A stretch of DNA of 32,000 bases from Horticoccus luteus (GCF_019464535.1 NZ_CP080507.1:2100001-2132000); one strand, 5' to 3'; positions 5,735 to 32,000 are shown, counted from the stretch's first letter. Numbers and translations: made by a program. Notes: a model not told the origin generated them from the sequence alone.

Positions 5735-5740
5735 GGGACG

Positions 5741-6580: not shown

Positions 6581-6603
6581 GAAAATTTGGGTCGCGCGCT
6601 GGT

Positions 6604-10354: not shown

Positions 10355-10472
10355 TTTCGGCCGGCAAAGGCCTGGTCCTGCCCACCTATGAGAATGGCGC
10401 CCTCACGGGGTTTCGACTTGCCTCGCATCATAGATGGCAAATTTAGCAACGTTAAGGTTTGTAAAGCCTCGT

Positions 10473-10490
10473 TTGTTCCCTTTTGTTCCC
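10473..10490 (+). repeat. Tandem direct repeat TTGTTCCC (2 copies, 10-nt phase) immediately upstream of the integrase start
   Basis: ttgttccc at 10473-10480 and again at 10483-10490. Function unknown. Confidence 0.5.
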
Positions 10491-10493
10491 TGC

Positions 10494-12060: not shown

Positions 12061-12956
12061 GCACCCTCTCTCGTGTGGCGGCTTTTCCACCCTTCCTGCG
12101 CGACATGCTCTCATCGCCGCCGCGGCGCGGTGAGGGCCTACACCGATGGCTCTTCTGCGTAGCTCGGCACCTGCACGTGCACCTGCCCGCAGACGAGATC
12201 GTCAAACTGCTCAAGCAAGTCGCGGCGCACTCCGGCTACAGGCGTGGAGAGATCGAGGAAGCGGTCGAAAGCTCCAAGCGATGCGCCTGGGGCAAACCGC
12301 AACTTCCCGGCACCCTTTATCGTGCTCGTCCCGCGTGGCCTCAGCACGATCCTGTCCGGCGCGCTGAACTCGTAAAATCCGGCGGCGGAGTCGGTGGACT
12401 GCTTGACGCCTCGCCCGTGAATCTGGCGGGCATTAAAGCCGACACTGAGGACCTCATTGACCAGTTAATGCCAGGCAACCGTCTCCTGTGCTGCGGCCAA
12501 TCGCCGCGACTGATCCAGACCAAACCCCGAGAAGAGTGGCGCGGCCAACTCGCACGGCAACAGTTCATCGTGCCCTCGCCTATGCGCGCGACGCATGGGC
12601 TGACGCAGCAGGGGAAGCGGTCGGAGCGTTGTTCGGAAATCGTCGGACCTCGCCAATACATCGTCGTGGAGTTCGACGGTAGTTCAAAAGACGACCAAGC
12701 AACCCTCCATCTGCATCTGGCGTGTCACGCACCTCTGGTGATGGTCGTGGACTCTGGCAACGAAAGCCTGCATGGATGGTTTCACTGCGGAGGGGCGACC
12801 ATAGAGGAAATCTGCCGATTTTTCGCCTACGCGGTGCGGCTCGGGGCAGATCCCGCCACATTCACGGCATGTCAACTCGTGCGAATGCCAGGAGGCACAC
12901 GTGACACCGGTCAACTGCAACGGGTTTTGTTCTTCAACCCGGCTAAAATCCGATGA
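12057..12956 (+). CDS. Archaeo-eukaryotic primase (AEP/PrimPol)-like replication protein
   Basis: 299 aa. Three motifs appear in the AEP motif I/II/III order: YIVVEFDG (acidic motif), VVDSGNESLHGWF (sGxxxxH motif) and GADPATFTACQLVRMPGG (D...R.PG motif). ATGA overlaps occur at both ends. Confidence 0.6.
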   Translation: MSTLSRVAAFPPFLRDMLSSPPRRGEGLHRWLFCVARHLHVHLPADEIVKLLKQVAAHSGYRRGEIEEAVESSKRCAWGKPQLPGTLYRARPAWPQHDPVRRAELVKSGGGVGGLLDASPVNLAGIKADTEDLIDQLMPGNRLLCCGQSPRLIQTKPREEWRGQLARQQFIVPSPMRATHGLTQQGKRSERCSEIVGPRQYIVVEFDGSSKDDQATLHLHLACHAPLVMVVDSGNESLHGWFHCGGATIEEICRFFAYAVRLGADPATFTACQLVRMPGGTRDTGQLQRVLFFNPAKIR

Positions 12957-16746: not shown

Positions 16747-16798
16747 GTTTAGAGGGCGGAGGGCCACACCGAGTGGCACACGCAACCCGCTACTTACG

Positions 16799-17047
16799 TC
16801 ACGCGTTATGCTTATGCGCAAGTTCCGAAATCTGGCGGCGTGTCCCTCGTCGCCGCACTCTCCGCCAACGTTCGTCGCGCGCGCTTAGAATTCTAAGGGT
16901 CGGCTCGTAGAGGACATACTCGCTGAACGCCTCGTTCATTTCACAAGCAGCCAGGTAACTGACGTAGCCACATAGCCCACGCTGAATTCGAAAGAGCACA
17001 TCTCGGGGTTCATTCCCAATACCCGGTTCCGACGCGTTTTGTTTCAT
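16799..17047 (-). CDS. Hypothetical small protein (82 aa) directly downstream of the short pAgo
   Basis: The track ORF starts with TTG at 17065 and the first ATG is at 17047. The central part (RDVLFRIQRGLCGYVSYLAACEMNEAFSEYVLYEPTLRIL) looks protein-like, while the C-terminal tail is Arg-rich. Coding status is uncertain. Confidence 0.3.
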   Translation of the reverse strand: MKQNASEPGIGNEPRDVLFRIQRGLCGYVSYLAACEMNEAFSEYVLYEPTLRILSARDERWRRVRRRGTRRQISELAHKHNA

Positions 17048-17087: not shown

Positions 17088-18692
17088 TTACATGTAAAAC
17101 TTATACTTGGTTTCGGCCTGAGTTCCCTTAGGTAGCTCAGTCAGAATTTTGCCCACGTCGCGCGCGAACCGAATGGTGATCGGAACGCTGCTGGCGAAGG
17201 AACAGCTATTCCAATTGAGCTTGGTAAGAGCCAAGACTTCTTGGCAGACCGTCTCGGCTGGAGAGACGCCGTGGTGTTCAAGAATCTCCAGCGGCCGAGG
17301 AATGCGCTTTCCTGGATAAGCGCGAAGGTAAGGCACGTATCCATTCCCGAAAAGCAGGTAGTTACCCTCCCCCAGCGTTACCACGGTGCCCCGCAGCGGG
17401 GGACGTCGGCCGATGCGCATGAAGCGCACGTCGCTGGTTTCCAGCGCAAGGAAATCGAAATGGTAAACGTCACCCAGCGCCGCCTTGAACCCCTCTATTT
17501 CTTCCGGCCAGTAGCGTGACGTTTTGTGAATCACCACGCGTTTCGGGGCCAGGGTATGCTGAAGTTTGTATTGCGCGATAGCTCGTTCAAGCAGGCTGCG
17601 CGCACCAGCCTCGCTCAAATGAGCCTTTCGGTCGCGCTTCTTGTCGAAGATTGCTTTCTCGCCCCGGATTACGATGCCTTCGCCGGCGCCGAACACTTGA
17701 GCAAGGCTCGTCTGCATGTCGGCCGCTCCGGCAGGACTCTCCTTGAAGAACGAGATGCCGACAAAACAGGTTTGATCCGGAAGCGACTGCAACCGCCAAG
17801 GGCTGTTACCGGCCTTGTAGTAAAGCGCCGTGAGGAGGTTCCAAGCGATGGATGCGGGATTGGAGTCCCCGAATGTCCGTTCCCACGCGAGTTGGGTTGG
17901 TAACCCTGATTTCATGGCGTGCGCCTTCAGGGCATGATGGATGTTAAAAAATCCGCTCGGCGAAGTATCGCGGTCTGGGTCATCGAATTCCAGTCCCAGA
18001 AACGACTGCCCAGTAACCTCCTGTTCTTTCGTCAATTTGTTCTGGAGTCGTTGCAATGGTGTCAGACGAACCTTCTGCCGTGCAAACGGAACGCCGATGG
18101 AGGCGCATTCGTCCTCCACGTCGGGCGGCAAGACGAGAACGACGACATCCGGGGCATCCTCCAGCGCAGCGATCGCGTCGATCTGCTTAACCGCTAGATC
18201 GACGACCTGCTTGATCTTCTCTTGGTCCTTGGGGGTCGCCAGCGCCTGCCGGAAGAAGTCCGGCGGAATAATCCGCTGATGAGAGGCATTGTCGGCGACA
18301 AAATTGGCGCGAAATGTCGCGGTCTCCGCGCAGCCGGGAAAATCTGGGAAGGTGTGAGGGTCGAGGGGCTTGTTCCGCTTGTTCAGTCCTGGCGACAGGC
18401 GGCCGTGAGCCCGACGGAGAAAGTCTTTGAACGTCTGGATGCCGGTCCCCGTGCCCACGAGTCCGATTTTAATGACACGCCCCGGTTGGAAGCCGTAGGG
18501 ACCGTGATCGTTGAGGCCGGCCTTGGGATCGACGGACACGCCGCCGTTGGCGAACACCAGCTTCGGCTCCTCGAGATGGAACGCGCGAAAAACAGGCGGC
18601 TGCCGGCGGATCAGCTCCTCGGTCAATGGGGGCTGGCTGACGGCACTCTGGTGCGGGCGGCGCCTATTCGAACGGTTTCTCATCGTCATCAT
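17088..18692 (-). CDS. Short prokaryotic Argonaute (MID-PIWI only), SPARTA-type partner
   Basis: About 534 aa, too short to hold N/PAZ domains. The N-terminus FHLEEPKLVFANGG...GPYG and the PIWI-region ALYYKAGNSPWRL are typical of short pAgos. It lies immediately downstream of a TIR-APAZ gene and overlaps it. Three ATGs (18692, 18689, 18683) are possible starts. Confidence 0.85.
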   Translation of the reverse strand: MMTMRNRSNRRRPHQSAVSQPPLTEELIRRQPPVFRAFHLEEPKLVFANGGVSVDPKAGLNDHGPYGFQPGRVIKIGLVGTGTGIQTFKDFLRRAHGRLSPGLNKRNKPLDPHTFPDFPGCAETATFRANFVADNASHQRIIPPDFFRQALATPKDQEKIKQVVDLAVKQIDAIAALEDAPDVVVLVLPPDVEDECASIGVPFARQKVRLTPLQRLQNKLTKEQEVTGQSFLGLEFDDPDRDTSPSGFFNIHHALKAHAMKSGLPTQLAWERTFGDSNPASIAWNLLTALYYKAGNSPWRLQSLPDQTCFVGISFFKESPAGAADMQTSLAQVFGAGEGIVIRGEKAIFDKKRDRKAHLSEAGARSLLERAIAQYKLQHTLAPKRVVIHKTSRYWPEEIEGFKAALGDVYHFDFLALETSDVRFMRIGRRPPLRGTVVTLGEGNYLLFGNGYVPYLRAYPGKRIPRPLEILEHHGVSPAETVCQEVLALTKLNWNSCSFASSVPITIRFARDVGKILTELPKGTQAETKYKFYM

Positions 18693-20100
18693 CGGGTTCG
18701 TCGCGGGGACCCGCGAATTCAGCGTTCGCCGCTGCGGCGGCCAAGTCGTCGTCCTGCTTGTCGAACAGCGACGCAAAGCGAATCTCATCAAAAGCTACAC
18801 CGACATCGAGCTGGCTCGTGGCCGGAATTCGGGCCACGACAATCTGCTCTCCGCCGGTGTCGACGCGGATCTCGCGGTGATTTTTCGCCATCACGAAACC
18901 CCAGAAGAGAATGTTGCGAAGAATGTCTGGGTTTTGCTGCTTCCCACCCCAGATGGTCGCCAGTTTGCCAGCACTCTTGCCGTCCACGCTGATATTGCCG
19001 TCGAGGGTAAAAAGGTAGTGGGGTTCGATCGAGACGTAGAGGTTATTGCCGACGCGCTTGAAGCAGAGCGACGCGCCGTGGTGGACCCAGAAGGTAGAAA
19101 TGCCGTCTTTCGCGGTCTTTTTCGCTGCGACCGCCACTCCCGTTTTCCTGCCCAGCATCGGCCATCGCCGATCACCGCCGTTCATCTCGGGCATGAAAAT
19201 GAAACGACCCTTGCCATCGCTCTTGATCCGAAGGGTGCGCATGTGGGAATTGAGCGCGGTGTTGAGCAGCGCCATCAGCCAAAGCCGCTTGTCCGGATGG
19301 ATGAACCAATCGTGGCGCGACTCCGGTGCGATCGTCTTCGGGTCGATCACCGCCCGCAGAGCCGTCGAGGACTGATTCAAATCGGCAAACGTATAGATGC
19401 GCTTTTCACGTAGCACGAAGGGCTCGGTTGACGGTGCCTTTGCCCAAACGTCCTTCTTCTCCCGGCAATCCGTGGCCGCGCCCCAAATGCGGGCCGGAAG
19501 GGCGGTAACCCGGAGGAGATTTGAGATCAGCACGTCCTGGACCCGGTCCGGCAACCACGAGACTTCGGGGCGCAATGGGGTTGGCAGGACGGGCGCGGTC
19601 GAAGCAAGCGGTGCCAGACGACGTCCGCGCTCCGCGGGCTGATTGCGAATCCGCCGCATCAATTCCACGAAGCTGCGGCGAAACTCCGCAGGCTTCCTGA
19701 AATCGATGTAACGCAAGTCCCGAAAGGGTGCGTAGAGATCGATGCGCTCGACTCCGCCCTTCGCGAGGTCACGGAGCAGGATCGGAATGAGCACGCCGCG
19801 CGAGTTGTTCGGGTCCGCAGCGACGATGTGCTTCCACTCGAATCGCGGCCAGTCCGCCTTGAGAAACTCCGGCGAAAGCACGGCAACCACGTGGCGCGCC
19901 GCTTTCATCCCAGCGTTCATCCGGTCGATGAGGCTTTGCCCGGCCTCGATGTCCCATTTATCGAAGAACACGCTCAGGCTGCGGGACTCCTTGCTGCCGT
20001 CTATCGTCTCGGACTCCACTTGCTCGGACAACGAGCGCACGAAATCGAGGTCTGCTCCGTTGTAGCAGATGTAGGCGTCCTTCTGTTCGATGATCGTCAT
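18664..20100 (-). CDS. TIR-APAZ protein (NADase effector partner of the short pAgo)
   Basis: 478 aa. The N-terminal TIR pattern is AYICYNGADLDFV...SVFFDKWDIEAGQSL (putative catalytic Glu in WDIEAG)...VVAVLSPEFLKADWPRFEW. A domain of about 300 aa sits in the APAZ position, and the C-terminal tail is acidic (EPDDDDEKPFE). Confidence 0.85.
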   Translation of the reverse strand: MTIIEQKDAYICYNGADLDFVRSLSEQVESETIDGSKESRSLSVFFDKWDIEAGQSLIDRMNAGMKAARHVVAVLSPEFLKADWPRFEWKHIVAADPNNSRGVLIPILLRDLAKGGVERIDLYAPFRDLRYIDFRKPAEFRRSFVELMRRIRNQPAERGRRLAPLASTAPVLPTPLRPEVSWLPDRVQDVLISNLLRVTALPARIWGAATDCREKKDVWAKAPSTEPFVLREKRIYTFADLNQSSTALRAVIDPKTIAPESRHDWFIHPDKRLWLMALLNTALNSHMRTLRIKSDGKGRFIFMPEMNGGDRRWPMLGRKTGVAVAAKKTAKDGISTFWVHHGASLCFKRVGNNLYVSIEPHYLFTLDGNISVDGKSAGKLATIWGGKQQNPDILRNILFWGFVMAKNHREIRVDTGGEQIVVARIPATSQLDVGVAFDEIRFASLFDKQDDDLAAAAANAEFAGPRDEPDDDDEKPFE

Positions 20101-20139
20101 GGCTGGAACCTCGATAGCTGCGCGTGGGTGATTCTCCCA

Positions 20140-21867
20140 TTAGCTGGCGGCGATTTCGGCCGCTGGCATGATCCGCAACGACTCGGAGATTAGCACCGGC
20201 TCGGTCAGTACTTTGCCGCCGCTATCGACGCCAAGCTTGAGCACGCGCTCGCCGCTCGGCCGCACCGAGCGATCAAAGCTGCCAACGGCATCGTTGTAGG
20301 CGTTGGTTGCCTTCTCCAGCCCGCTTCGGATGCTGTCAAAATGGCGAGTGAACGTCGCCACCCGCGAGAAAAGCTCAGATGCAGCTTCGGCGATCTCGCG
20401 GGCATTGACCGTCTGTTCGTGGTGCAACCAACTCGCGCTCACGGAACGCAACAACGCGATGAGTGATGCCGGCGTCGCCAGCGTGACTCGGCGCTGGGCA
20501 GCCCAAACGATCAAATCGCGGTCACCTTCCAACGCCGCGCTGAAGAGCGATTCTGCCGGCAAGAAAAGGACCACGTGGTCCAGCGCCTTGGGGAACTGGC
20601 TCGGATAATCACGCTCTGCCAGAGCCTTGATCGTTCCGCGGAGTTTGTCCGAGTGGGCCTTCAACAGTTCGCCACGCTTCAACTCATCCGTCACGCTGAG
20701 AGCGTTAAGGAAGTCGAGGTCGGGCACCTTCGAATCGACAATGATGACCCGGTCTCCCGGCAGTTTGACGACGAGGTCCGGCTTACCGTCCTCGGCTCGC
20801 TCCTGTTCGACGAAGTCGCAGTGCGCGCTCATTCCTGCGGCCTCGACGACCCGCCGCAGTGTCTCCTCGCCCCAACGACCACGCGCCTGTCCTGAACTCA
20901 GCACACGCCGGAGCTGAATCGTCTCCGTGGAAAGCGTCGTGCTGTGCTGCGCGAGCGTGGTGAGGTGTTTCGAAACCTCACCCATCATCGTCGCTTGGGT
21001 GGTCTCGCTCTGAGCCAACCGTTGCTGATAAACTTTCAGCTGTTCCTCCAGCGGCTTAACCAACGTCGCAATGGCCGCTTGTCGCTGCGCCAAGTCCCCT
21101 TTCGCACCTTCGTTGAACTTGGCGAGCGTCTCGTTCGCGAGCTGAAGAAACTCCGGCTGCAATTGCTTCAACGCGTCGGAGCTCATCGCGGCGAACGCCT
21201 CCCGAAGATCGCGCAGCGCTTTTTCGTGCCCTTCCTTCAGTTCGCGGAACTGTTCACTATTTGCGCGGTGCTGTTCGGCGTTCCGCTCATTGGCCGCATT
21301 CAGATTTGCTTCCGCCGTGGCCAGTGCCGTGGTCAAGGATTCCGCGCGTGCTTGCGCCGTCTTGAGGTCGGCCGCCGTAGCCGACAGCTCAGTTTTGGCC
21401 GCGGATAGCGCCTCGTTACCGCGATTTTCGGTGAGCTTGATCCGTTGGTCTAACGCCTCCGTCTGGAGGGTCGCGGCCTTCAGATTGGCGTTGGCCGTGG
21501 CGAGCGCCGCAGTCGTTTCACTTACGCGCTCCTGCGCCGCTCTCAGATCCGATACGGCCGTGGCTAACTCTGCTTTGATGGTCGCGGCCGTTTCGTCCCC
21601 ACGGGTCTCGGTCGATTTAACCTCAACTTCCAACTCCCGCGCGCGAGCCACCGCCGCTTGCAGGCTCGCGTCCGCGGCCGATCGTGCGGCCTCCGCCTGC
21701 AACCGCGCCGCCTGACACTGCTCCAGGTCAGCTTTCAGTGCTTCGGCTTGCTGGCGCAACTCGTCTTCGAGACGCGAATCAGCGGGAGCGTCCTTCGACG
21801 CGCGAAAGATCCAACCAATCGCGAGGCCCGCGATTAAGCAGACGAGGATCAGAAAAAGGGTATTCAT
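20140..21867 (-). CDS. rmuC: RmuC-family DNA recombination/nuclease protein with an N-terminal TM helix and an expanded coiled coil
   Basis: The ATG at 21867 gives MNTLFLILVCLIAGLAIGWIF, a TM helix. A long Ala/Glu/Gln-rich coiled coil follows. The C-terminal segment RGRWGEETLRRVVEAAGMSAHCDFVEQ...PDLVVKLPGDRVIIVDSKVP is the RmuC nuclease-fold signature. Confidence 0.85.
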   Translation of the reverse strand: MNTLFLILVCLIAGLAIGWIFRASKDAPADSRLEDELRQQAEALKADLEQCQAARLQAEAARSAADASLQAAVARARELEVEVKSTETRGDETAATIKAELATAVSDLRAAQERVSETTAALATANANLKAATLQTEALDQRIKLTENRGNEALSAAKTELSATAADLKTAQARAESLTTALATAEANLNAANERNAEQHRANSEQFRELKEGHEKALRDLREAFAAMSSDALKQLQPEFLQLANETLAKFNEGAKGDLAQRQAAIATLVKPLEEQLKVYQQRLAQSETTQATMMGEVSKHLTTLAQHSTTLSTETIQLRRVLSSGQARGRWGEETLRRVVEAAGMSAHCDFVEQERAEDGKPDLVVKLPGDRVIIVDSKVPDLDFLNALSVTDELKRGELLKAHSDKLRGTIKALAERDYPSQFPKALDHVVLFLPAESLFSAALEGDRDLIVWAAQRRVTLATPASLIALLRSVSASWLHHEQTVNAREIAEAASELFSRVATFTRHFDSIRSGLEKATNAYNDAVGSFDRSVRPSGERVLKLGVDSGGKVLTEPVLISESLRIMPAAEIAAS

Positions 21868-22073
21868 GTGATTTTCGGGATAAGCGTTCAGGTCCTGGAT
21901 GGCGTGCCTACCGCGCACGCTAACACGCGGGGTGGGACAAATTCGGTCCCATCTGGATTTCCGTGCTGTGGAGCACGGGGCGAAAGCGGGGGCTAGTCTT
22001 CATTCGACCACACTATCTCATCCGCGGAAACACGCTGGCCCAACGTGGTCGAGGCAGCTAACGTTTGTGTGAG
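21868..22073. promoter_or_regulatory. Divergent intergenic region between the LysR-like regulator and the RmuC-SPARTA gene string
   Basis: A 206-nt gap between divergent starts at 21867 (-) and 22074 (+), the arrangement typical of LysR-type regulators and their targets. No boxes were assigned. Confidence 0.3.
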
Positions 22074-23075
22074 ATGGCGCTCGATCAACTCTTCAAGCAG
22101 AAGGTCCCCACTCCTCGCCAACTGCACGCGCTGGTTAAGTTCGTCGAGCACGGCTCGCTTTCGGCTGCATTCGGGAGCGGCAAGAGCGCTCAGGGAGCCG
22201 CAACCCAGCAATTGGGCCGGATTGACCGGTGCCTCGGCATTCGCACGCGCAAGAGTGCCGGGGTGGTCAAGGTGCCGACCGATGAAGCCATCCAGCTCGC
22301 TGAGTTTTGTCGCGATTTCTTCCAGCGACTCGCTGATTTCAAAACGGGCGCCGAAGGAAAACCGAACAACTTTGTAGTCGGCGCGGGCGACAGCCTAATG
22401 TTCTACCTGCTCTTGCCAGCTCTGAGAACCACGGGGGCCTGGCGATCGTCCGTGGAATTGCACCTGCAGAATTTGCGGAGCCGCGAAATCGTCCATGGGG
22501 TTCTCGACGGTTCAGTTGATGTCGGGCTGGTGCGAGCCACGGCCGTGGAAGACGAACTCACCGACCGAAAGCGCCTGAAGGTAGAGCCGGTATGCCAACT
22601 GGGCTACGCGTTCTACGTTCGAACCGAGTTGCTGAAATCTTATCGAGGGAACATCGCCGACTCGCTCGCGCTGGTTAAATGGGGTAAGGCGAATCTGCCG
22701 TTGGCCACGTTTTGGGCCGAACACAGCACATACACGGAGGCCTTGGGCAGAGCGAAATTGGGCTGGCCGGCCCGCCTTCGCTGCGAGTCCTTCCCGCAGG
22801 TCGAACGCGCGATAATTGCCGCCGACTATTGCGGGATACTTCCACGCATCGCGTTCAGCAACATTCCGCCGGAGATCACCGAATTTGGCGTCGATCTACT
22901 TGCGCCGGTTTCGAGGAGCATCGGCCTCGTTTGGAGCTCAACCCTCACCCAGCGTCGTGCTGGCGGCGAAATCGCCCTGCGCGAATTGCGTTCAGCTCTG
23001 AAGACGGTCTGTGCTGGGCCAACGTTCAGCCACGAAGGTCGTCCAGAAACTCCGACGCGGGGTCGACGCAAGTGA
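22074..23075 (+). CDS. LysR-type transcriptional regulator-like protein (divergent HTH plus periplasmic-binding-fold effector domain)
   Basis: The first ATG is at 22074 (the track start at 22065 is TTG). LHALVKFVEHGSLSAAF...AATQQLGRIDRCLG matches the LysR HTH pattern loosely. The downstream alternating beta/alpha region (FVVGAGDSLMFYLLLPAL...VDVGLVR) resembles a LysR substrate-binding domain. Confidence 0.55.
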   Translation: MALDQLFKQKVPTPRQLHALVKFVEHGSLSAAFGSGKSAQGAATQQLGRIDRCLGIRTRKSAGVVKVPTDEAIQLAEFCRDFFQRLADFKTGAEGKPNNFVVGAGDSLMFYLLLPALRTTGAWRSSVELHLQNLRSREIVHGVLDGSVDVGLVRATAVEDELTDRKRLKVEPVCQLGYAFYVRTELLKSYRGNIADSLALVKWGKANLPLATFWAEHSTYTEALGRAKLGWPARLRCESFPQVERAIIAADYCGILPRIAFSNIPPEITEFGVDLLAPVSRSIGLVWSSTLTQRRAGGEIALRELRSALKTVCAGPTFSHEGRPETPTRGRRK

Positions 23076-25098
23076 CGAGCAGTTCGTCCCGCGCCCGCGT
23101 GCAGGCCACATAGAGCAACTGACGCTCGGTATCATAGATTTCCTGCAGGTCGGACCCTTCACCGGCGCTCTGGATTCGCTGCTGCAATGGCACGACATCA
23201 TCATCGCAGGCCATCACCGCTACGGCGCGAAACTCCAAGCCTTTCGCCAGGTGCATCGTGCTGATGGCAACTTGGCCGCCGGTCGTTTCGAGATGCTCAT
23301 CGAGAATCTTGCCCGAGAGTTTTGCCGACTTCACCGCCATCTCGGCCCGGCTTACCTCGGCCGGTGAACGGACAATCACACCGATTTCGTGAGGTAGAAC
23401 TCCTTTGCTGATTTGGCGGGTCAGCCATTCGCCGACGGCCGACGCTTCCCGACTTTCGCTCGGAAGAATTTGAATTTCTGCGGGTGGGCCATTGAAGACC
23501 GATATGGTATCATGGCGGGTTTCTCGGTTGCCGTCTACGTCCACCATTTCGGCGCCGAGCAAACGATCCGCCTGCTCGCGAATCTGGTGCGACGTTCGAT
23601 AATTTATCCGGAGTGTTCGGGAGCGGCCGCGAACGTCCACGCCGAGCGACTTCCACGAAAACGGCTGCTGAAAGATTCGTTGCCCAAGATCACCGGCGAA
23701 GAAAAGGGCATTGGCGCGACCTCCGCCGAGCGCAGCAAAAAACCGCAACTGCGACACGGTGATGTCCTGCGCTTCATCAACAACAGCGAAGTCAAAGGGC
23801 GGACGTTTCGTTTCGAGGGTGTGTGCGGTGAGTCGGGAAAAAACAGATGCCAGAGTCTTGAGCCCACGTTCGGTCAGCCCCGCGCGAACGCGCTCAAAGA
23901 TCGACCAGAGCAATGCACGTTGTGCTTCTGGCAATCGGGTCTTTCTGCCGAGACGCGCCACGTCACGATATGCTTCCCACGTCGATAGGTCCCACGCATC
24001 GACGACTTGCTCCCACTCGGTCAGCAGGAAACGCAGGTGGAATTTGTGGCCGGGAACTGCCGTTGCGGCTGCCTGAATCAGATTTCTCACGTCCTCGGCC
24101 GGCGCCAGTTTCACGGGACCGATCTGCGACCGATAGAGGCGCAATCCGAGCATCTCCGAGGAGTAAACGTCGATTCGTTCGGCCAGGCGCGGCTCGTTTC
24201 CGATCAAGCGCCTCAGCTTCGTCCGCAGCGCAAATGCCAGCGTGTCGGAGAAAGTAACCAGCAATACTCGCGCATCTGGATTTCTGCGCGCGAGCTGCAC
24301 TGCGCGATGGAGCGCCACGACCGTCTTTCCCGTGCCCGCCGATCCCGCAACGCGCGCCGGGCCGGAGTAGTCTCGCTCCACCAGCTCGCGCTGCTCGGGA
24401 TGCAAGAAGATGGTCCACTTCTCCCAGGGGAATTCCAAGGCGCGTTTCAGATCGTCGACATTCGTTAGCAGCCGGAAACGACGCTGGGCGTCGGGATGCT
24501 CGAACGGGCTCGACGCAGCCGGGACCGGCTCGGCTGTCCGCGGCTTCCCGCCAGTGGCAAGTTCAAGGAGCGCTTCAGCGGCCTCGCCCGGCAGGCGCTC
24601 GGCGAGCACGAGCAGACTTTCTTCATTCACCTGCCGCACGTCGTCCAACCATTCCTCGGGCACACCGTAGCCAAGAAGCTCCTCATTGGTTTTGCTCGCG
24701 AAGAGCGGCGGTTTCACGGCGGTGGACTCTTCGGCCACGACGTAGGACGGAATGATTACTTCTTTGACCGTTTCCCGTATCTCCACGAATTGGGCCGCTC
24801 CTGTCTTCGGGTGTGTTTCCAACTTGCGCCGTTCTGCCCAGGCATAGGCCTTGTCGTGGTGATCGACATAACACAGCAGAAGGCTGCCAGCCGTTCGATG
24901 GACGATCAGGCGGATGTCCGAGTTGACGCGCACCGACCAGAAGTTCTTGTCCCGCGAACCATCGACGCGATGAAACTGCATTCCCGGGTTAGCGGGGTTG
25001 AGTTGGAGATCGAACGCCGTCGTCTTCGCGGCCTTCTGCTCGTCGCCGGTAAGCCTGGCTAGACTGTCGGTGAATGTGTCGGCGATGCGAAAATCCAT
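23026..25098 (-). CDS. UvrD/Rep-type SF1 helicase with an N-terminal RelE/ParE-like domain
   Basis: 690 aa. Walker A is VAGSAGTGKTVVAL, motif II is FAVVDEAQD, and the C-terminal motifs are ISTMHLAKGLEFRAV and LLYVACTRARDELLV. The N-terminal 100 aa or so (FWSVRVNSDIRLIVHRTAGSLLLCYVDHHDKAYAWA) resembles RelE/ParE-fold toxins. Confidence 0.8.
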   Translation of the reverse strand: MDFRIADTFTDSLARLTGDEQKAAKTTAFDLQLNPANPGMQFHRVDGSRDKNFWSVRVNSDIRLIVHRTAGSLLLCYVDHHDKAYAWAERRKLETHPKTGAAQFVEIRETVKEVIIPSYVVAEESTAVKPPLFASKTNEELLGYGVPEEWLDDVRQVNEESLLVLAERLPGEAAEALLELATGGKPRTAEPVPAASSPFEHPDAQRRFRLLTNVDDLKRALEFPWEKWTIFLHPEQRELVERDYSGPARVAGSAGTGKTVVALHRAVQLARRNPDARVLLVTFSDTLAFALRTKLRRLIGNEPRLAERIDVYSSEMLGLRLYRSQIGPVKLAPAEDVRNLIQAAATAVPGHKFHLRFLLTEWEQVVDAWDLSTWEAYRDVARLGRKTRLPEAQRALLWSIFERVRAGLTERGLKTLASVFSRLTAHTLETKRPPFDFAVVDEAQDITVSQLRFFAALGGGRANALFFAGDLGQRIFQQPFSWKSLGVDVRGRSRTLRINYRTSHQIREQADRLLGAEMVDVDGNRETRHDTISVFNGPPAEIQILPSESREASAVGEWLTRQISKGVLPHEIGVIVRSPAEVSRAEMAVKSAKLSGKILDEHLETTGGQVAISTMHLAKGLEFRAVAVMACDDDVVPLQQRIQSAGEGSDLQEIYDTERQLLYVACTRARDELLVTCVDPASEFLDDLRG

Positions 25099-25101
25099 TG
25101 G

Positions 25102-25738
25102 CTACGAATCGAGGTATGAAGTCGCCCGGATGAGTATGCCGCGTCGCGCGTGGGTCCGATGCAACAGGTCTTCCACGCCTTGGGGAGTGGGCGAGCTGAT
25201 CGCTCGGTCACCAATCAGGCATGCAAGATGATCTTCGAAAAACTTCTGAGCCTTGTGCCGCTTCACGGCGTCAAGATTGCCGCCCGCGGCTACGACAGAA
25301 TTGGCCGAGACGACGAAAACTCCACGTGATTCGTAGAGGAAGACGTATGATACCGGACTGAGTTCGAGCATGCGCTCGCATTGAGAAACCAGCTCCCGCA
25401 GGTCCAACACTCCCCATCTGCGAATCAGTTTCGCCTGGGCGAGAAACCCCTTCAACCGAGTATCCAGGAACGCTGACTTCGAGCACGCCCATGAAGTCGG
25501 CACCTGCCTTCGATTCCTGCGCGTATCGGCCACGATCTGTGAGGGTTTTTGCCCTCCAAAGGATCCCGTTGGTCTCGACACCAGTCAAAGCCTGTTCGAT
25601 TCGTCCGAGCATTCTATCCGTCATCGCGGGCTCCTGCTCCACTTGCCCGTCCAGCAACGAGGTCTCTGCACCCGTTATGGCGGCACCAATAACCTTGGCT
25701 ACCTTTCGCACCGACGCTTTGTAACAGGTCGGACGCAT
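25102..25738 (-). pseudogene. Frameshifted small gene (PD-(D/E)XK-like) between mod and the helicase: a pseudogene, a sequencing error, or a recoding site
   Basis: Two overlapping ORFs occupy the slot. The 25738 ATG overlaps the mod stop (TGATG), and the 25102 stop lies 3 nt before the helicase ATG. The span is 637 nt (3n+1). Sense-looking sequence switches frame near 25450-25480 (...QESKAGADFMGVLEVS | FLDTRLKGFLAQAKLIRRWG...). Confidence 0.65.
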
Positions 25739-28476
25739 CAGACTCGAAACACCTTCATCACCTCATCGCCGAGGTGGTTGATGACTTTGACGGCGATTCG
25801 GCCTGACTTGGGTTTGTCGAAGGGGCGGCTGGTGTCGCTGTTGAGGGTGGCCCAGGCCTCGGGGTTGATCTCCGCCTTCAGGCTCGTCTTGAGCGCGTTG
25901 TAGGGATCGTTCGCGCCGAGGAAGTAGGCGTGGCGGACGAAGAAGCTTTCCTCGTTGTAGTCGGTGTCGATGAACCAGCAGGCGATGCCGTCGGCGTTGT
26001 CGCTCACGACTTCACCAGTCTGGGGCTTGAAGACATCCACGCCGTTCACTTTCACGCGCAGGCGTCCGTCCTTTTCCCTGAGCAGGGTCACGTCGGGCTC
26101 GCCGAATATGACGAAGAGGTTGCCCTTGCCGGTGTTCTTCAGGTCTTCGGCCATGTGGAGGTCCGCGTTCATGCGGGCCTTCAGCACCGGGATGCGGCCG
26201 AGCTTGTTGAACTCGGTGGTGTGCGCCTCGTAGTTGAACGCGCACGCGATGAGGACATCGAAGGCGGCGTCCCCGGCTTCTCGTGCTGCGGCAACGAGGT
26301 CGGCGCGCTGCACGGTGCCGAATTCGGGACCGATAAAAATGGCAGCGCGCTTTTCGGTGTTGCCCTCCATGTAGCGGCCCTCGCCGCAGACGAGTTGACC
26401 GGGCCAAGCCGTGAGTGATGTGAAGGCAATCCGGTCCTCCTTGTGGGCCTGCTGGACGCCGGCGGCCTTGAGGTTTTCCAGGATCATTTGCGGAAAGCTC
26501 TGCTTCGCGCCATAGTCGTCGTCGCCCTCGTTTACGGCGGGATCGATCAGATTGTCGTTCTCATCGACGCCAAGCACGCGATGAGGACTGAGACTCTCGA
26601 CGGTGAATGGACCTGCGACACGGACGGACTTCTTGTTTTCGTAAGGCTTGTCGTAGAGGTATTCGAATTCGGCCTTTGCGGCGATGCTGGCATCGATCTC
26701 TTTCTGCCGGGCAATCCGCGCGTGCCACCATTCGGCGTGGAGGTTCTTCACGGTGTCAGACCACTTGGCGTCGGCCTCGCGGGGAATTTCCCACTGCTGC
26801 CATTGCTGCTTGAGCGCGGCGTTCAGCTTTTTCCGCAGCGGTTCGAGCGTTTGCTGCCACTTGTCCCAGATGACGTCGATCTCGGCATTGTTGGCGATGG
26901 ATTTGAGGGTGATGTGCGGCACGCGCTCATAGACGAAGCCGTGGCGAAGGTTGCCGTGGACGGGCTGGCTGCTCGGCGCGGTGCGGGTGACTTCCGCTTC
27001 CTTCTGCTGGCCCTCGCGTGAATCAGCCAGCAGGTAAAAGGGATAACGTGCGCCCATGATGCGGGCACGGGCCAGCGCGAGCGCGACACGCGATGTGTCG
27101 ATGGTGATCCAGCGGCGGCCCCATTGCTCGGCGACGGTGGCCGTGGTGCCGGAGCCGCAGGTCGGGTCGAGCACGAGGTCGCCGGGGTCGGTGGCCATGA
27201 GCAGGCAGCGCTGAATGACTTTCGTGGAAGTCTGCACGACGTAAACCTTCGGGTCGGCATAACCAGAAACAATTGTGTCGTCCCACGAATTAGAAAACGT
27301 CACGACAGGATAGTCGTCTGCGTAGCGCCTGTAGCGAAGGCGTTGGCCGATACCGATCAATCTTCCCGACATTGCCAAGCGCGGCATGCCCGCGCGGGAC
27401 GCCTTCCAATGCGTGTTGGGCGGGAGATTGAACTCTTGGCCCTGATACGAGAAAGGATACGTGCCAGCTTCGCTTGCTCCCTGAGAACTCATGTCACCGG
27501 CCATGAATCGCGGGTCCTTATGCTGTGCGACCTCTCGAAGCTCGTCGGTCCCCGTGTATTGCGTTTCCAAGAGCGAAGCGCCTTTCTCAGCAAGCGGCTG
27601 TCGATACTTCAGCCGCGAAAGGTCTTTCGCATACCAGAGAGCATAGTCGTAGATGTTCTCCAAGTAGTTCGAGCCAGTGCCAGATGTTTTCTTGAACGCG
27701 ATGGAGGACACGAGATTTGTCTCCCCGAACACCTCGTCCATCACCGCCCGGACGCGGTGGACATTCTCATCGCCGATCTGGACGAAGATGGAGCCGGAAT
27801 CGGTGAGGAGGTCACGGGCGACGGTGAGGCGGTCGCGCAGGTAGGTGAGGTAGCTGTGGATGCCGTCGCGCCAGGTGTCGCGGAAGGCTTTGACCTGCTC
27901 GGGCTCGCGGGTAATGTGGCCGGCGTTGCCGTCCTTCACGTCGCGGCTGGTGGTGGACCACTGGAAGTTGCTGTTGAATTTGATGCCGTAGGGCGGATCG
28001 AAGTAGATGCACTGCACCTTGCCGCGCAGGCCCTCGCGCTCGGCGAGGCTGGCCATGACCTGGAGGGAGTCGCCGAGGATCATGCGGTTGCTCCAGTTTT
28101 GGTCGTGCTGGTAGAACTCGGTCTTGTCGGCGCCCTTCGGCAGACCATTGAAATCGTGGAAAAGGTCGAACTGGGCCTCAGGTGCGGCTTCCTGCGATTG
28201 GCGGAGAAGGTCGTCGATGAGGGCCTTCGGGTGGACCTTTTCCTGGATGTAAAGCGGCGGAGCATGAACGACGAGGTCACTCCAGTCCTGTTGGTCCTTG
28301 CCGCGCCAAACGAGTTGCGGGTCGAGATCGGGATTGCGCGGATACTTCACCTGCCGGGGCTGCTCGTGCTCCTTCTGAACGATCGATTGCTGCTCAGCGG
28401 ACGGGATGTTCTTCCGCTTCGCGTCTTCGTGAGTGAAATTTGTGACACTCTTGGGCGTGGAGGCTTTTTTTGCCAT
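25738..28476 (-). CDS. Type III-like (beta-class) N6-adenine/N4-cytosine DNA methyltransferase, Mod-like, with a long C-terminal extension
   Basis: The ATG at 28476 gives MAKKASTPKS.... Motif IV (IYFDPPYG) precedes motif I (VLDPTCGSGTTATVAEQWGRRWITID), which is the beta permutation typical of type III Mod. 912 aa, with about 350 aa beyond the catalytic core. Confidence 0.85.
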   Translation of the reverse strand: MAKKASTPKSVTNFTHEDAKRKNIPSAEQQSIVQKEHEQPRQVKYPRNPDLDPQLVWRGKDQQDWSDLVVHAPPLYIQEKVHPKALIDDLLRQSQEAAPEAQFDLFHDFNGLPKGADKTEFYQHDQNWSNRMILGDSLQVMASLAEREGLRGKVQCIYFDPPYGIKFNSNFQWSTTSRDVKDGNAGHITREPEQVKAFRDTWRDGIHSYLTYLRDRLTVARDLLTDSGSIFVQIGDENVHRVRAVMDEVFGETNLVSSIAFKKTSGTGSNYLENIYDYALWYAKDLSRLKYRQPLAEKGASLLETQYTGTDELREVAQHKDPRFMAGDMSSQGASEAGTYPFSYQGQEFNLPPNTHWKASRAGMPRLAMSGRLIGIGQRLRYRRYADDYPVVTFSNSWDDTIVSGYADPKVYVVQTSTKVIQRCLLMATDPGDLVLDPTCGSGTTATVAEQWGRRWITIDTSRVALALARARIMGARYPFYLLADSREGQQKEAEVTRTAPSSQPVHGNLRHGFVYERVPHITLKSIANNAEIDVIWDKWQQTLEPLRKKLNAALKQQWQQWEIPREADAKWSDTVKNLHAEWWHARIARQKEIDASIAAKAEFEYLYDKPYENKKSVRVAGPFTVESLSPHRVLGVDENDNLIDPAVNEGDDDYGAKQSFPQMILENLKAAGVQQAHKEDRIAFTSLTAWPGQLVCGEGRYMEGNTEKRAAIFIGPEFGTVQRADLVAAAREAGDAAFDVLIACAFNYEAHTTEFNKLGRIPVLKARMNADLHMAEDLKNTGKGNLFVIFGEPDVTLLREKDGRLRVKVNGVDVFKPQTGEVVSDNADGIACWFIDTDYNEESFFVRHAYFLGANDPYNALKTSLKAEINPEAWATLNSDTSRPFDKPKSGRIAVKVINHLGDEVMKVFRV

Positions 28477-28478
28477 GA

Positions 28479-29108
28479 CTAAGTTGTGGACGAGCCGCGC
28501 TCGACGAAAAGGTTGCAACCAACGTGACTCACCTGAAGGTGCACGCCTGAGTGGTGGGCGTGCTTGGAGAGAAATGACCACTTATGCAGATGGTCAGTAG
28601 TTTCGCCCTGCTGGTCACAGGGGAGCTCTGCATTCATTTGCTCGCGAATCTTGGCAAGTAGCCCGGCGATGTTCTTCTTTCGAACATAGGCGATCAGAAT
28701 CCCACGACCTTCGCGGCCGGTTGCATAGCGCTGTAGTAGCTGAACGAGTCCCCCAATGTGATAAACGGGGCCATTGTAGATTTTCGCCTCTCCAAGCTTC
28801 CGACGAACCGGCACGCAGTGCTCCGCTTCGATGGTCAAGTCGACGTGTCCGTTGGAATGCTTCTCTTGCGATACGGCTAGACCGGGAATCGAAAGACTTG
28901 CGCAAAGCACGGCGGAAAGTCCCTCTTCATCAAGTTCCATGTAGTTCAGCTTGTTTGTTTCGAGATGAGCAATCGCTGGACCGAGCAATGCCTCGAACGC
29001 CGCGTCAAACTCTTCGTCCGTGCTCGCGGTCAATAAGTCCAGGTATTCTGGAGCTTTGCGCCTGATGAGTTCCACAAGGCGTGCGGCGCTATCAATAGGG
29101 GGACTCAT
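28479..29108 (-). CDS. Small PD-(D/E)XK-like hypothetical protein between res and mod
   Basis: The ATG at 29108 overlaps the res stop (ATGA), and the stop lies 2 nt before the mod ATG. QEKHSNGHVDLTIEAEHCVPVRRKLGEAKIY fits an E...D...ExK nuclease-fold pattern. No family was recognised. Confidence 0.6.
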   Translation of the reverse strand: MSPPIDSAARLVELIRRKAPEYLDLLTASTDEEFDAAFEALLGPAIAHLETNKLNYMELDEEGLSAVLCASLSIPGLAVSQEKHSNGHVDLTIEAEHCVPVRRKLGEAKIYNGPVYHIGGLVQLLQRYATGREGRGILIAYVRKKNIAGLLAKIREQMNAELPCDQQGETTDHLHKWSFLSKHAHHSGVHLQVSHVGCNLFVERGSSTT

Positions 29109-32000
29109 GATGTGAAATTCACTCCCGAACGCGTCGTCCAACTGACGTTAACGCCCGAAGCCCATTGCGCCCATTCGGTGTCGGATATCTCTTTCTGGCG
29201 CCACCATTGCCGAAGCTTCGCCGCAAACTGATCAGACGCGATCACCTCATCCTGGCCGGCAGAACGAAATTCCATCTGAAGAACGCCCGCAGTGGGCGAT
29301 GCAAGGATGCCCAACGTGGCAAGCACATCGTCTAGCCGCGAGCCGCCGTGCTTAGCTAGATCAACCACGTCGCCAAGACTAATCCGACCATTGCTTCCGG
29401 CTGCTTTCTCCCAAATGGAGTTACCGATCTGGATCAATGTCGGGAGCCCACCGCAATGCGCATGAATGAACTCCACCGCAGGATTTCCGCGCGGTGACTT
29501 TGATGCACCCGCGACCGCTGCAATCATCTCTTCGAACGCATTTCTCACCTTTGCGGCAAAGTTAGCTTCGATTTGGTAGATTTCTGTGAACTCGGCGAAG
29601 GCCCAACGTCCATGTTTCCCGAGATGGTTTACACCGGGAACCCAATAGGTCTCGATCGTGGACTTCTTCTCCTTCGCGTCCTCCCGGCGGTAACCTTTGA
29701 TCTCGACTACAAGGTGCAGGAAGTCGGGGGATCCGTCGGCTCGTGGCGGTTTGCCGTCGTCGACCAGCACAACGAAGTCCGGAAGGTATTTTCGCATTTC
29801 GGAACCGAACCGATATGGCACTTCCAAACCGAGGTTGTGATTCTTCACGTAGGCCCGAACCCGAGGATGCGATTCAGCGACGCGGCAGAACTCGGCTTCC
29901 CAATCACTATCGAGCACAACCCAGTTCACATGACAGCGATCAGCGCGCGTCTCCCAGCGATCGGGGCGAGAGGTATTGAAGCGGACGTAGGAGGTCGAGC
30001 CGACGGGGTTATACGGATCGAGGATTGCCTTGATCGGCCGCTCGCCGAGGAAATGGCGGGTGATGCCAGCCGCAATGCGTTCGCACGCCATGTTGGCGAG
30101 CTGCTGATACATGAGCTGCGCGGGGTAGGTGCCGCCCTTGCAGACGAGGCAGGTGTCGAGCCACTGCTTGGCGATGCGCTTGAGTTGGCCGAACAGATGA
30201 AGTTCAGGTTCGGCCCCGGGATCACGAAATTTCGTGTAGAGGAGATGCTTGGTCAGGTTGAAGAGGACCGTCGATGGCCGCTCCTTCTCCAAGTGCTCCA
30301 GCGTCATGTTCACCGACTCGCCAATAATGCCCGAATTCTGATTGATGCTCGGGCCCACGAGGTCCGGCGTGAGTTCGAGGACTGAGTCGTCGTTGAAGTC
30401 AGCAGCGAGGTGCTCCTCGGGCAAATCAACCCGGTAGCCGACGACACGGGGGAAGCGGATTTCGAGCGCGTCACGATCGGGACGAACCGCTTTGACGACG
30501 ACTGTTTCACGCGGTGGCTGTGGTGGCGCAACAACCGGCTTGGCCGTGAAATCAAATGGGATACCGAAGATGTCGGCATACTCGACGTTGAACAGGCCCT
30601 CTTCGTTCAACTCGTAGGACTGGCGACGGAGAGCGCGACCAATAACCTGCTCGCAGAGGAGCTGAGTGCCAAAGGCGCGAATACCGAGCACGTGAGTGAC
30701 GGTGTTGGCGTCCCATCCTTCCGTGAGCATCGAGACCGACACAACACAGCGGATCTGTTCGCCGAGGGTGCCATACTTGCCCACAGTGTTCATCACCTCG
30801 CGCAAGATCTCATTGTCCGCGAGGTTTTCGCCGGCTCGGAGATCGCCGGTGCGCTCAACGATCTCGCGGCGGAACCGTTCCAACTCATCCGCGGCCATTG
30901 CGCGGAAATTATCGTCCAGGGCATCCCCTGCTTCGAGCTGCTCGCTATCGATCAACAGTGTGTTCGGACGAGCCAAGGGATTGCCGGTCACGTCATCGAA
31001 GTTACGAAAGAGCGGAGCACGTCCTTGGACGAGCGTTTGAGTGCCGTCAGGGTTCTTGCGGTAGAAGCCGCTCACAAAATCGTAAACCAGCTTTGAGATA
31101 GCTGTGTTTTGGCAGACGATGATAAAGCAGGGAGGCACCCTGATCCCGTTGGCGCGCCAAAGCTCAAAGGTCTTCTCGTAGTGTCCGTAGAGCGCTTCGA
31201 TGGCGGTTTGTAGCTTCGTGGGCAGCGAGAGTGGATCGAGTTCTTGGTCTGATCCGCGCCCTTTCTTCGGCATGTCCTTACGGATGTTCTCCCAGAGATC
31301 GCGGAACATCGGCATGTCTTTGCCGGCAATGTTCTCCGCCACGGGCACGCGTGGAAGCTTCACGATGCCGCACTCGATGGCGTCCATGAGCGAGAAGTCG
31401 CTCACGGTCCAATGGAACATCGTGCCCTCGGCATAGCCAGACCCGCGCAAGAAGAACGGCGTCGCAGAAAGGTCGACCACGCGGAGGACGCCCAACTTGC
31501 GATTTACGGCTTCGAGGCCGGAAATCCAAAGGCGTGCGGCTTCGTTGTTCTTCTCGGCTTCCTGCCTATCGTCACCCCTCAAAACCTCGTCGTCTTCCTC
31601 CGGTGGCTTTTCGCGGTAACAATGATGCGCCTCGTCGTTCAGAACCAAGATATTCTTCAGGCCCATGAGGTCGGGCATGACGCGCTGAATCATCTGCCCT
31701 TCAGTTTCGAGGGTGTTCAGTTCCTCGCCCCCGCGCCCCTGAAGGAGGGCCCGCCCGCCCGCGGAGAGTTCGACACGCTCGCGCAGTTTGAAGGCGTGAA
31801 AGTTGGTGATAACGATCTTCGCTCGCTGGAGGTCCTCCAGCATGTCTTGCGGCACCAACTCACGTTGCGCGTAGTAACTGTCGGGGTCATGCGGTTGAAG
31901 CACGCGCAATCGGTCTTTGATTGTCAGCCCAGGGGCGACGACGAGAAAGCCGCGAGAGAAGTTTCTTCTGCTCGGTCGCCGGACAGCGTTGATCGTCTGC
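29105..32000 (-). CDS. Type III restriction enzyme Res-like subunit (SF2 DEAH helicase plus C-terminal PD-ExK endonuclease), 5'-truncated by the window edge
   Basis: The frame stays open to nt 32000 (...GFLVVAPGLTIKDRLRVL...), and the track 'start' at 31909 is an internal TTG. The DEAH box is LNDEAHHCY, a helicase C-terminal motif is VSMLTEGWDANTVTHVLG, and the nuclease motif is LPDFVVLV...LHLVVEIKGY. Confidence 0.85.
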   Translation of the reverse strand, partial: QTINAVRRPSRRNFSRGFLVVAPGLTIKDRLRVLQPHDPDSYYAQRELVPQDMLEDLQRAKIVITNFHAFKLRERVELSAGGRALLQGRGGEELNTLETEGQMIQRVMPDLMGLKNILVLNDEAHHCYREKPPEEDDEVLRGDDRQEAEKNNEAARLWISGLEAVNRKLGVLRVVDLSATPFFLRGSGYAEGTMFHWTVSDFSLMDAIECGIVKLPRVPVAENIAGKDMPMFRDLWENIRKDMPKKGRGSDQELDPLSLPTKLQTAIEALYGHYEKTFELWRANGIRVPPCFIIVCQNTAISKLVYDFVSGFYRKNPDGTQTLVQGRAPLFRNFDDVTGNPLARPNTLLIDSEQLEAGDALDDNFRAMAADELERFRREIVERTGDLRAGENLADNEILREVMNTVGKYGTLGEQIRCVVSVSMLTEGWDANTVTHVLGIRAFGTQLLCEQVIGRALRRQSYELNEEGLFNVEYADIFGIPFDFTAKPVVAPPQPPRETVVVKAVRPDRDALEIRFPRVVGYRVDLPEEHLAADFNDDSVLELTPDLVGPSINQNSGIIGESVNMTLEHLEKERPSTVLFNLTKHLLYTKFRDPGAEPELHLFGQLKRIAKQWLDTCLVCKGGTYPAQLMYQQLANMACERIAAGITRHFLGERPIKAILDPYNPVGSTSYVRFNTSRPDRWETRADRCHVNWVVLDSDWEAEFCRVAESHPRVRAYVKNHNLGLEVPYRFGSEMRKYLPDFVVLVDDGKPPRADGSPDFLHLVVEIKGYRREDAKEKKSTIETYWVPGVNHLGKHGRWAFAEFTEIYQIEANFAAKVRNAFEEMIAAVAGASKSPRGNPAVEFIHAHCGGLPTLIQIGNSIWEKAAGSNGRISLGDVVDLAKHGGSRLDDVLATLGILASPTAGVLQMEFRSAGQDEVIASDQFAAKLRQWWRQKEISDTEWAQWASGVNVSWTTRSGVNFTS

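Follow-up and report, generated by a model that had tools for sequence, protein, structure and literature searches.

Textbook type III restriction-modification (R-M) is encoded by two genes in the order mod-res. In enzymes of the EcoP15I type, Mod provides recognition and self-marking and Res provides ATP-driven motion and cleavage; hallmarks of the class are hemimethylation of an asymmetric site and a cleavage reaction that needs ATP and two inversely oriented unmethylated sites. Here, we analyzed a 32,000-nucleotide stretch of the Horticoccus luteus genome (NZ_CP080507.1:2100001-2132000 of assembly GCF_019464535.1; hereafter the window), the minus strand of which carries, at 23026-32000, five genes for a Res-like protein, a 209-aa protein (Small1), a Mod-like methyltransferase, a second small protein (Small2), and a UvrD-type superfamily 1 (SF1) helicase. 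We consider it probable that this operon represents a widespread type III-like R-M family that has res-mod-uvrD as its core, uses the junctions between these genes as slots for cargo, and works by the mechanism proposed below.

Like the classical type III enzymes EcoP1I and EcoP15I, the window operon encodes a beta-class Mod with a recognition segment and a Res that is predicted to join a superfamily 2 (SF2) ATPase to a C-terminal PD-(D/E)xK nuclease. It differs from them in gene order, which is res-(Small1)-mod-(Small2)-uvrD in the window and res-mod-uvrD in its relatives, in protein size (Mod of approximately 920 aa and Res of approximately 1030-1150 aa in this family), and in the presence of a third gene for an SF1 helicase and of cargo slots. 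The window Mod is assigned to the PADLOC type III model, and the window Res matches the classical models weakly (E ~1e-4). The closest published precedent concerns fusion genes of UvrD and Cas4, which commonly lie beside type III Mod and Res genes and for which a role as an ancillary defence component was proposed (Hudaiberdiev et al. 2017, PMC5704561). A UvrD-like SF1 helicase beside type III Mod and Res is common to both arrangements; however, the window helicase lacks a Cas4/RecB nuclease and has a RelE-like N-terminus, and any nuclease-like function would reside in small genes of its own.

Type I and BREX loci are also known to harbour embedded defence genes, for example BrxU in BREX. PrrC, encoded within the type Ic EcoPrrI locus, is triggered when EcoPrrI is blocked and is a precedent for coupling (PMC12707154), whereas TgvAB inside the type I locus of V. 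cholerae VPI-2 works on its own (PMC11411939). As in these loci, unrelated defence genes stand between the subunit genes of a methylation-based system in the family described here, and the GmrSD family recurs. Unlike these loci, the family has a type III-like trio as host and offers two defined slots, with a Mod|UvrD occupancy of 74% and cargo that falls into 81 clusters from 129 proteins.

Other systems that combine helicases with nucleases or methyltransferases were compared using PADLOC. In Gabija, a UvrD-type helicase works with a nuclease, and the GajB model matches the window helicase (6e-23, partial coverage of the core); Gabija has no methyltransferase, however, and the window has no OLD-family GajA. 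As no operon protein matched GajA, Gabija was ruled out, and OLD/AriA-like ATPases were found only as cargo elsewhere. MADS and DISARM likewise place a methyltransferase and helicases in one operon. The eight-gene MADS system (mad1-mad8) was ruled out because only weak domain matches to mad2 (1e-9) and mad8 (2e-7) were obtained, DISARM because DrmA, DrmB, and DrmC were missing (a DrmD-like SNF2 protein occurs only as cargo in locus L019), and BREX because its partner genes were absent. A literature search found no description of the Res-Mod-UvrD trio, of its slots, or of the pair formed by Small1 and a C-terminal extension of Res (CTD), and no paper was found on 'BPTD_3080', the name of the Res family. 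The genes themselves are already catalogued, since a curated NCBI model exists for the family of Res.

The conserved core is res-mod-uvrD

The five open reading frames (ORFs) at 23026-32000 share one orientation and overlap or nearly abut, as an earlier note on this DNA had described. Its four junctions were confirmed by direct reading of the sequence: the stop codon of Res overlaps the start codon of Small1 in an ATGA (29108-29105), 2 nt separate the TAG of Small1 from the ATG of Mod (28481-28474), Mod and Small2 share a TGATG (25740-25736), and 3 nt lie between the TAG of Small2 and the ATG of UvrD (25104-25096). These ATGA and TGATG overlaps and 2-3-nt gaps support the note's reading of a single, tightly coupled unit. 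No sigma-70-like promoter was detected in 21800-32000 and terminator-like sites in the same interval were not enriched (13 versus 10.9 ± 3.4 in shuffled sequences), which fits a single transcript. As each of the five genes has hundreds of homologues, none of them is a chance ORF.

Related loci were drawn from several sources, including a scan based on Small1 with one genome per species, which gave 46 loci; a helicase-based metagenome scan, which gave at least 595 UvrD relatives, the best 80 of which were surveyed; and eight plasmid-borne UvrD homologues with at least 47% identity, whose neighbours were inspected. These samples are skewed towards close relatives of the window operon, ORFs in them are longest-ORF calls made in this analysis, and a junction was counted as empty at 100 nt or less. 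A search of 50,697 phage records at E<=1e-20 yielded no UvrD relative.

Among the 46 species-representative loci, 22 have the order Res-Small1-Mod with 53-80% identity to the window, and UvrD lies downstream in 17 of the 18 such genomes with enough sequence. Every metagenome locus with at least 6 kb upstream of UvrD has Mod there on the same strand (39/39), and Res precedes Mod wherever there is room (31/31). Seven of the eight plasmid homologues adjoin Res and Mod, including a P. avellanae plasmid (NZ_CP091148) with a bare three-gene operon at 18967-27027, the stops and starts of which overlap and the products of which PGAP names 'BPTD_3080 family restriction endonuclease', 'site-specific DNA-methyltransferase', and '3'-5' exonuclease'. 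Divergence across relatives runs in parallel for the three proteins, with identities of 53-79% for Res, 56-84% for Mod, and 47-74% for UvrD. The conserved core is a set of three translationally coupled genes, res-mod-uvrD, and Small1 and Small2 are optional, unrelated add-ons.

The architecture put forward in the earlier note therefore stands in part. Both res in first place and an SF1 helicase at the end belong to a distinct, conserved, and widespread type III-like architecture and are no chance neighbours, and, contrary to the outcome that the note had named as refuting, all three genes regarded as extra to a type III system do co-occur with Res and Mod elsewhere; the close relatives of the helicase, in particular, are always found with Mod and Res where flanks suffice. 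A fixed system of five components is not what the relatives display, as the core is Res-Mod-UvrD and the P. avellanae plasmid has these three genes alone.

We weighed whether the locus could instead be a plain two-gene type III R-M system that happens to sit next to a separate downstream helicase defence gene, either alone or accompanied by Small2. Some UvrD homologues (32-49% identity) do occur without Res or Mod, the helicase scores against the PADLOC GajB and NERD+UvrD candidate models, and in Tistrella the helicase is encoded on the strand opposite to Mod-Res. Among close relatives with sufficient flanks, however, the helicase was never seen alone, and the associations are 39/39 and 31/31; starts and stops overlap even in the bare trio, all three proteins diverge in parallel, and the window has no GajA-like partner. 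We thus regard side-by-side independence as quite unlikely. The constant presence of the helicase, its coupled translation, and its parallel divergence point to a working partner of Res and Mod.

Sequence features of Res, Mod, and the UvrD-type helicase

The core of Res (29524..32000, minus strand) is predicted to comprise an SF2 helicase-like ATPase with a DEAH motif II and a C-terminal PD-(D/E)xK nuclease (PDF...VVEIKG). It matches the NCBIfam equivalog NF046055 (BPTD_3080 family restriction endonuclease) with 1109 bits (cutoff 800), the alignment pairing its residues 1-817 with profile positions 176-969 of 970, and PGAP gives Res proteins of related plasmid loci the same name. The reading frame is open up to base 32000 and the gene runs beyond the end of the window; as residue 1 falls at profile position 176, approximately 175 N-terminal residues, including helicase motif I, lie outside it. 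The Pfam RE_endonuc match is weak (residues 663-748, 18.8 bits versus a threshold of 23.4).

Mod (25738..28476, minus strand, 912 aa) is a predicted beta-class N6/N4 DNA methyltransferase with a large C-terminal region. It matches Pfam PF01555 over residues 154-467 (2e-33) and PADLOC MTase_III PDLC03632 with 1425 bits, and was placed in the beta class because DPPY precedes the AdoMet motif DPTCGSGTT in the translation. Between these motifs lies a variable target-recognition segment (approximately 27255-27690), which is unalignable with that of the relative L069, as are the corresponding segments of the Desulfuromonas contigs L005 and L006 with each other.

The helicase (23026..25098, minus strand, 690 aa) has a Walker A motif GSAGTGKT, a motif II VDEAQD, and a motif VI at its C-terminus. 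Pfam assigns UvrD-helicase to residues 232-477 and UvrD_C to residues 600-677, and sequence matches in the PDB are UvrD and PcrA. The protein ends at motif VI, and the Pfam scan found no nuclease domain. Its N-terminal domain of approximately 100 aa (24799..25098, minus strand) resembles RelE/HigB below threshold, is present in 2426 cluster representatives (E<=1e-3) with up to 90% identity, and is as conserved as the helicase motifs (mean identity of 72-77% over residues 1-100 versus 37-78% elsewhere). This domain is likely a contact or regulatory surface.

A 32%-identical homologue of the helicase was found on the E. coli IncF plasmid NZ_CP026578 (L061, 27245-40607), directly after genes for a SAM-dependent DNA methyltransferase of 1636 aa and a DEAD/DEAH helicase of 2113 aa. 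In all, 15 E. coli plasmids carry this triad of methyltransferase, SF2 motor, and SF1 helicase, which could serve as a tractable model.

The inter-gene junctions as insertion slots

Of 65 metagenome loci, 48 have 0.4-5.2 kb inserted at the Mod|UvrD junction and 17 have none there; at the Res|Mod junction, 12 of 38 loci carry cargo. Cargo ORFs share the orientation of the operon and fill 73-100% of the gaps. The 129 cargo proteins form 81 BLAST clusters, 61 of them singletons, and many clusters have no family assignment. Recognizable cargo includes GmrSD, a 1269-aa SIR2 protein, SIR2 with HerA, an ABC-3C cassette (CTD12, MC8, DUF2326), OLD/AriA-like AAA_15/AAA_21 ATPases, an HNH type IV-like enzyme, the DrmD-like SNF2 helicase of L019, an AAA protein with an S8 peptidase, HamA, YhcG/DUF1016, DACNG/DACNH, AEP-TOTE, a C5 methylase, and pAgo-like proteins. 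Judged by their sequences, both junctions are insertion slots for other defence genes. Most of the cargo other than Small1 probably acts alone and gains from co-expression and co-transfer, as was shown for TgvAB inside a type I locus (PMC11411939).

Two Desulfuromonas contigs, L005 and L006, have identical flanks and different cargo, the 1269-aa SIR2 protein in one case and the ABC-3C cassette in the other. They are 98.5% identical up to approximately Mod codon 258, the recognition segment (approximately codons 258-440) cannot be aligned, the rest of Mod is 84% identical, and identity returns to approximately 100% past the first 300 nt of uvrD. It follows from this pattern that the cargo was exchanged together with the specificity of Mod, through recombination inside the conserved genes. 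In this pair of near-identical strains, a single recombination event seems to change both the restriction specificity and the embedded defence gene.

The pAgo-like proteins inside the Mod|UvrD slot come from two metagenome loci, L110 (2876-6250) and L076 (from approximately position 782), one of them being 1124 aa in length.

Small1 occurs with a C-terminal extension of Res

The Small1 gene (28479..29108, minus strand) encodes a 209-aa candidate PD-(D/E)xK nuclease with 798 homologues across phyla at 60-71% identity, in which E82, D90, and E107-x-K109 are invariant. It matches no Pfam or NCBIfam family, and PADLOC returns a weak match to PDC-S54. Its AlphaFold2 (AF2) model (pLDDT 86, pTM 0.82) predicts a helical N-terminal region followed by a beta-beta-beta-alpha-beta core. 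Weak Foldseek matches to this model include EndoMS, MspJI, PaqCI, and HamA, and a comparison with viral models gave nothing at E<=1e-3. On these motifs and this predicted topology a nuclease fold is plausible for Small1.

Beyond the coverage of the NCBIfam profile, the window Res continues for approximately 130-140 aa (29105..29523, minus strand), and this CTD is present on every Res that precedes Small1 and absent from every Res without it. Matches of Small1-less Res proteins in tblastn stop at residue 814-847 of the 964-residue query, and the consensus ...AVLxLLSxP...WWxxK..S...W..WA..V.V.W.P ends every protein encoded immediately upstream of Small1. Relative to L069, which has no Small1, DNA homology ends at 29523 and restarts at the start of Mod, so that the CTD and Small1 together constitute a discrete insert of approximately 1 kb. 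The distribution of the CTD rests on the 46 loci of the Small1 scan, as a profile search of a collection of 5.8 billion proteins gave one match only, a 157-aa protein. Only 2 of the 80 metagenome loci sampled through UvrD have Small1.

The pair is not limited to Res-Mod-UvrD operons, being found also with type I, type ISP, and other type III subunits. Its hosts, besides the BPTD_3080-type Res of the window family, include classical-order Mod-Res systems (six loci), type I HsdR (Pfam-confirmed in L034 and L048, with five more loci of the same layout), a type ISP enzyme of 1612 aa, an Eco57I-type methylase paired with ResIII, and a protein encoded downstream of a MORC-like ATPase. We propose that the CTD is a docking or partner domain for Small1, which probably docks on this extension of Res as an auxiliary nuclease or guard.

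Small plasmids, among them a Col plasmid of 6.1 kb from K. pneumoniae, carry similar pairs, in which a Small1-like gene overlaps an upstream gene for a protein of 126-149 aa (L073, 1132-2186, for the Col plasmid; L070, 7466-8537; L071, 7534-8642). The Small1-like proteins retain a GH.D...LGEAK motif. The upstream proteins share the central motif of the CTD and the motif ...ALLTHP..FLQLEY and gave hhalign probabilities of 23%, 56%, and 1% against the CTD; as this similarity is weak, their homology to the CTD was kept as a lead only. These pairs look like a toxin and its partner and may be a free-standing ancestor of the CTD-Small1 module. A different nesting inside an R-M operon was seen in L041, where a DarT/Macro (DarTG) pair (4878-6598) lies between hsdS and hsdR of a type I system and the HsdR bears a CTD followed by Small1.

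The slots and the module raise the question of whether Res-Mod-UvrD is a sensor and the slot genes, Small1 and Small2 in the window, are dependent effectors that respond to the firing of restriction or to its inhibition by a phage. Such an arrangement would fit cargo that is encoded inside the operon and is translationally coupled to it, a Small1 whose dedicated domain is fused to the restriction motors of four enzyme classes, and CTD-like plus Small1-like pairs that stand alone on small plasmids in the fashion of a toxin and its partner, and PrrC in a type Ic locus is a precedent (PMC12707154). Many of the cargo types are known to act alone, however, among them GmrSD/BrxU, SIR2-HerA, ABC-3C, and OLD-type ATPases, and TgvAB works independently within its type I locus (PMC11411939). 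The cargo is also too heterogeneous for a single coupling mechanism, and a core that leaves the Mod|UvrD slot empty in 17 of 65 cases does not depend on it. We consider this sensor-effector reading unlikely.

Small2 is frameshifted in the window

Small2 (25102..25738, minus strand) is a frameshifted copy of a family with 413 intact homologues of 207-214 aa, the best 83% identical, in which E75, D81, and Q101-x-K103 are invariant. The frame is lost at approximately 25453/25454 (GTT|GAAGGGG), where homologues read V-(K/S)-K-G-F-L, and relative to these the defect is consistent with the loss of 2 nt or the gain of 1 nt. The frameshift noticed earlier is thus real in this sequence. Programmed frameshifting and phase variation were ruled out, as the site has neither a slippery heptamer nor a long simple repeat. 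The window copy is, by its sequence, probably an inactive pseudogene, and the frameshift could also be a sequencing error. The AF2 model of Small2 (pLDDT 73) has a helical N-terminus and a beta-beta-beta-alpha-beta core, with weak Foldseek matches to BbvCI, Cas4, RecU, HincII, and CinB, and on this model a nuclease fold is plausible. The earlier assignment of a nuclease fold to both small proteins is accordingly reasonable by motifs and topology, while no structural match reaches significance for either. Small1 and Small2 were ruled out as paralogues (hhalign probability 0.9%).

All six recovered contexts of intact Small2 are Mod-Small2-UvrD, and the Res proteins of Small2 loci are without the CTD and without Small1. 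Small2 was found in 0 of the 80 metagenome loci sampled through the helicase and Small1 in 2 of the 80, which makes the window, with one broken and one intact add-on, unusual in bearing the two together. L068 (848-2938), the closest relative of the Small2-UvrD segment of the window, has an intact Small2 and a helicase split into 403 and 290 aa, such that the broken component varies between members of this sub-lineage.

With Small2 frameshifted and UvrD of L068 split, the locus could be read as a system that is being lost, or as a methyltransferase kept for epigenetic regulation, in line with the regulatory role of type III mod genes in some pathogens. Small1, Mod, UvrD, and the visible part of Res are nevertheless intact with their catalytic motifs, the operon lies in an integrase-bearing island beside a short pAgo/TIR-APAZ system, and no simple-sequence repeat of the phase-variation type is present at the frameshift. 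A decaying or non-defensive locus is, in our judgement, very improbable.

The operon lies in a genomic island

G+C content falls at approximately 10 kb from approximately 0.65 to approximately 0.59-0.61, and this drop is followed by genes for a tyrosine-integrase-like protein (10434-11750), a DUF5906 helicase/primase-like protein (12953-14302), and a Sel1-repeat protein (15403-16821), which together place the restriction operon and a neighbouring pAgo system in an integrated island. A search of the window for tRNA genes found none. The pAgo system is a SPARTA-like pair on the minus strand (17088-20100) consisting of a short pAgo (PADLOC pAgo_I, 463 bits) and a TIR-domain APAZ-type partner (Pfam TIR_2, 5e-21; PADLOC Aga PNTD models), with pAgo directly downstream and the two ORFs overlapping. 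The pair is preceded by a gene for an RmuC-family protein (20140-21918, minus strand). As pAgo-like proteins also occupy the slots of L110 and L076, Argonaute systems are found both inside and just outside this operon family.

Between the two defence loci, a gene for a LysR-type regulator (22065-23075, plus strand) is convergent with the helicase gene, overlapping its 3' end by 50 nt, and divergent from the RmuC/TIR/pAgo genes. The layout of helicase, convergent LysR, and divergent pAgo recurs in L068, where DNA homology extends through LysR, and in the contig of P0125, while in L054 the LysR gene is divergent from a ubiquitin-like (E2/JAB/ThiF) cassette. The LysR-linked genes may be a second variable defence module.

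Discussion

Restriction activity, the role of the helicase, and the docking and nuclease activity of Small1 are, like all functions in this operon family, inferred from sequence. In the mechanism we propose, Mod, as a beta-class adenine- or cytosine-N methyltransferase with its own recognition segment, would mark host DNA and provide sequence recognition. At unmethylated sites Mod would load Res, which would move using ATP and cut through its PD-(D/E)xK domain in a manner similar to EcoP15I. The SF1 helicase would be an obligatory third partner, tethered or regulated through its RelE-like N-terminal domain, that acts on DNA during or after restriction by unwinding it, processing ends, or clearing stalled complexes. 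Defence genes in the junction slots would be co-transcribed with the operon and swapped by recombination within mod and uvrD. In the window, the plug-in of the Res|Mod slot would be the approximately 130-aa Res extension together with Small1, a putative nuclease probably docked there, and the Mod|UvrD slot would hold Small2, a putative nuclease specific to this slot, with a frameshift and probably dead.

Several observations weigh against this interpretation. Helicase motif I of Res lies beyond the end of the window, and the visible part of Res matches PADLOC REase_III weakly (E=9e-5) and has no sequence match in the PDB. The resemblance of the helicase N-terminus to the Pfam family HigB-like_toxin (PF05015; E=1e-4, 20.6-23 bits) is below the 27-bit cutoff, and Foldseek comparison of the Small1 and Small2 models with the PDB gave no match at E<=1e-3, the best matches having E>=2.5e-3 and not being nucleases only. 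In one Small1-containing genome, L037, the 7 kb next to Mod contain no UvrD. At 32-49% identity, more distant homologues of UvrD are found in other contexts, namely with a RecB-like nuclease and DUF4011, with a giant methyltransferase and a DEAD helicase, and with BrxL and a RecQ-like gene; as their neighbours differ, the helicase may be a general accessory and not a dedicated subunit. Finally, our literature search found no experiment on any member of the family.

A more far-reaching version would make Res-Mod-UvrD a distinct class of ATP-dependent restriction enzyme in which the SF1 helicase is integral, the slot occupants are wired to the core, and CTD-Small1 is a universal plug-in nuclease or guard on type I, ISP, and III motors that fires when the motor stalls or a phage anti-restriction protein blocks it. 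We regard this as rather doubtful.

Current annotation pipelines miss this unit because each gene receives a label of its own, either 'restriction endonuclease', 'site-specific DNA-methyltransferase', '3'-5' exonuclease', or 'hypothetical protein'. Should the helicase prove to be a genuine third subunit, the two-gene type III system has a common three-gene relative, present in at least ten phyla and on plasmids. The slots inside the operon are a cheap, high-yield route to new defence genes. The CTD-Small1 pair, in turn, is a testable, portable accessory of several classes of ATP-dependent restriction enzymes and could account for the acquisition of a back-up or guard function by these enzymes.

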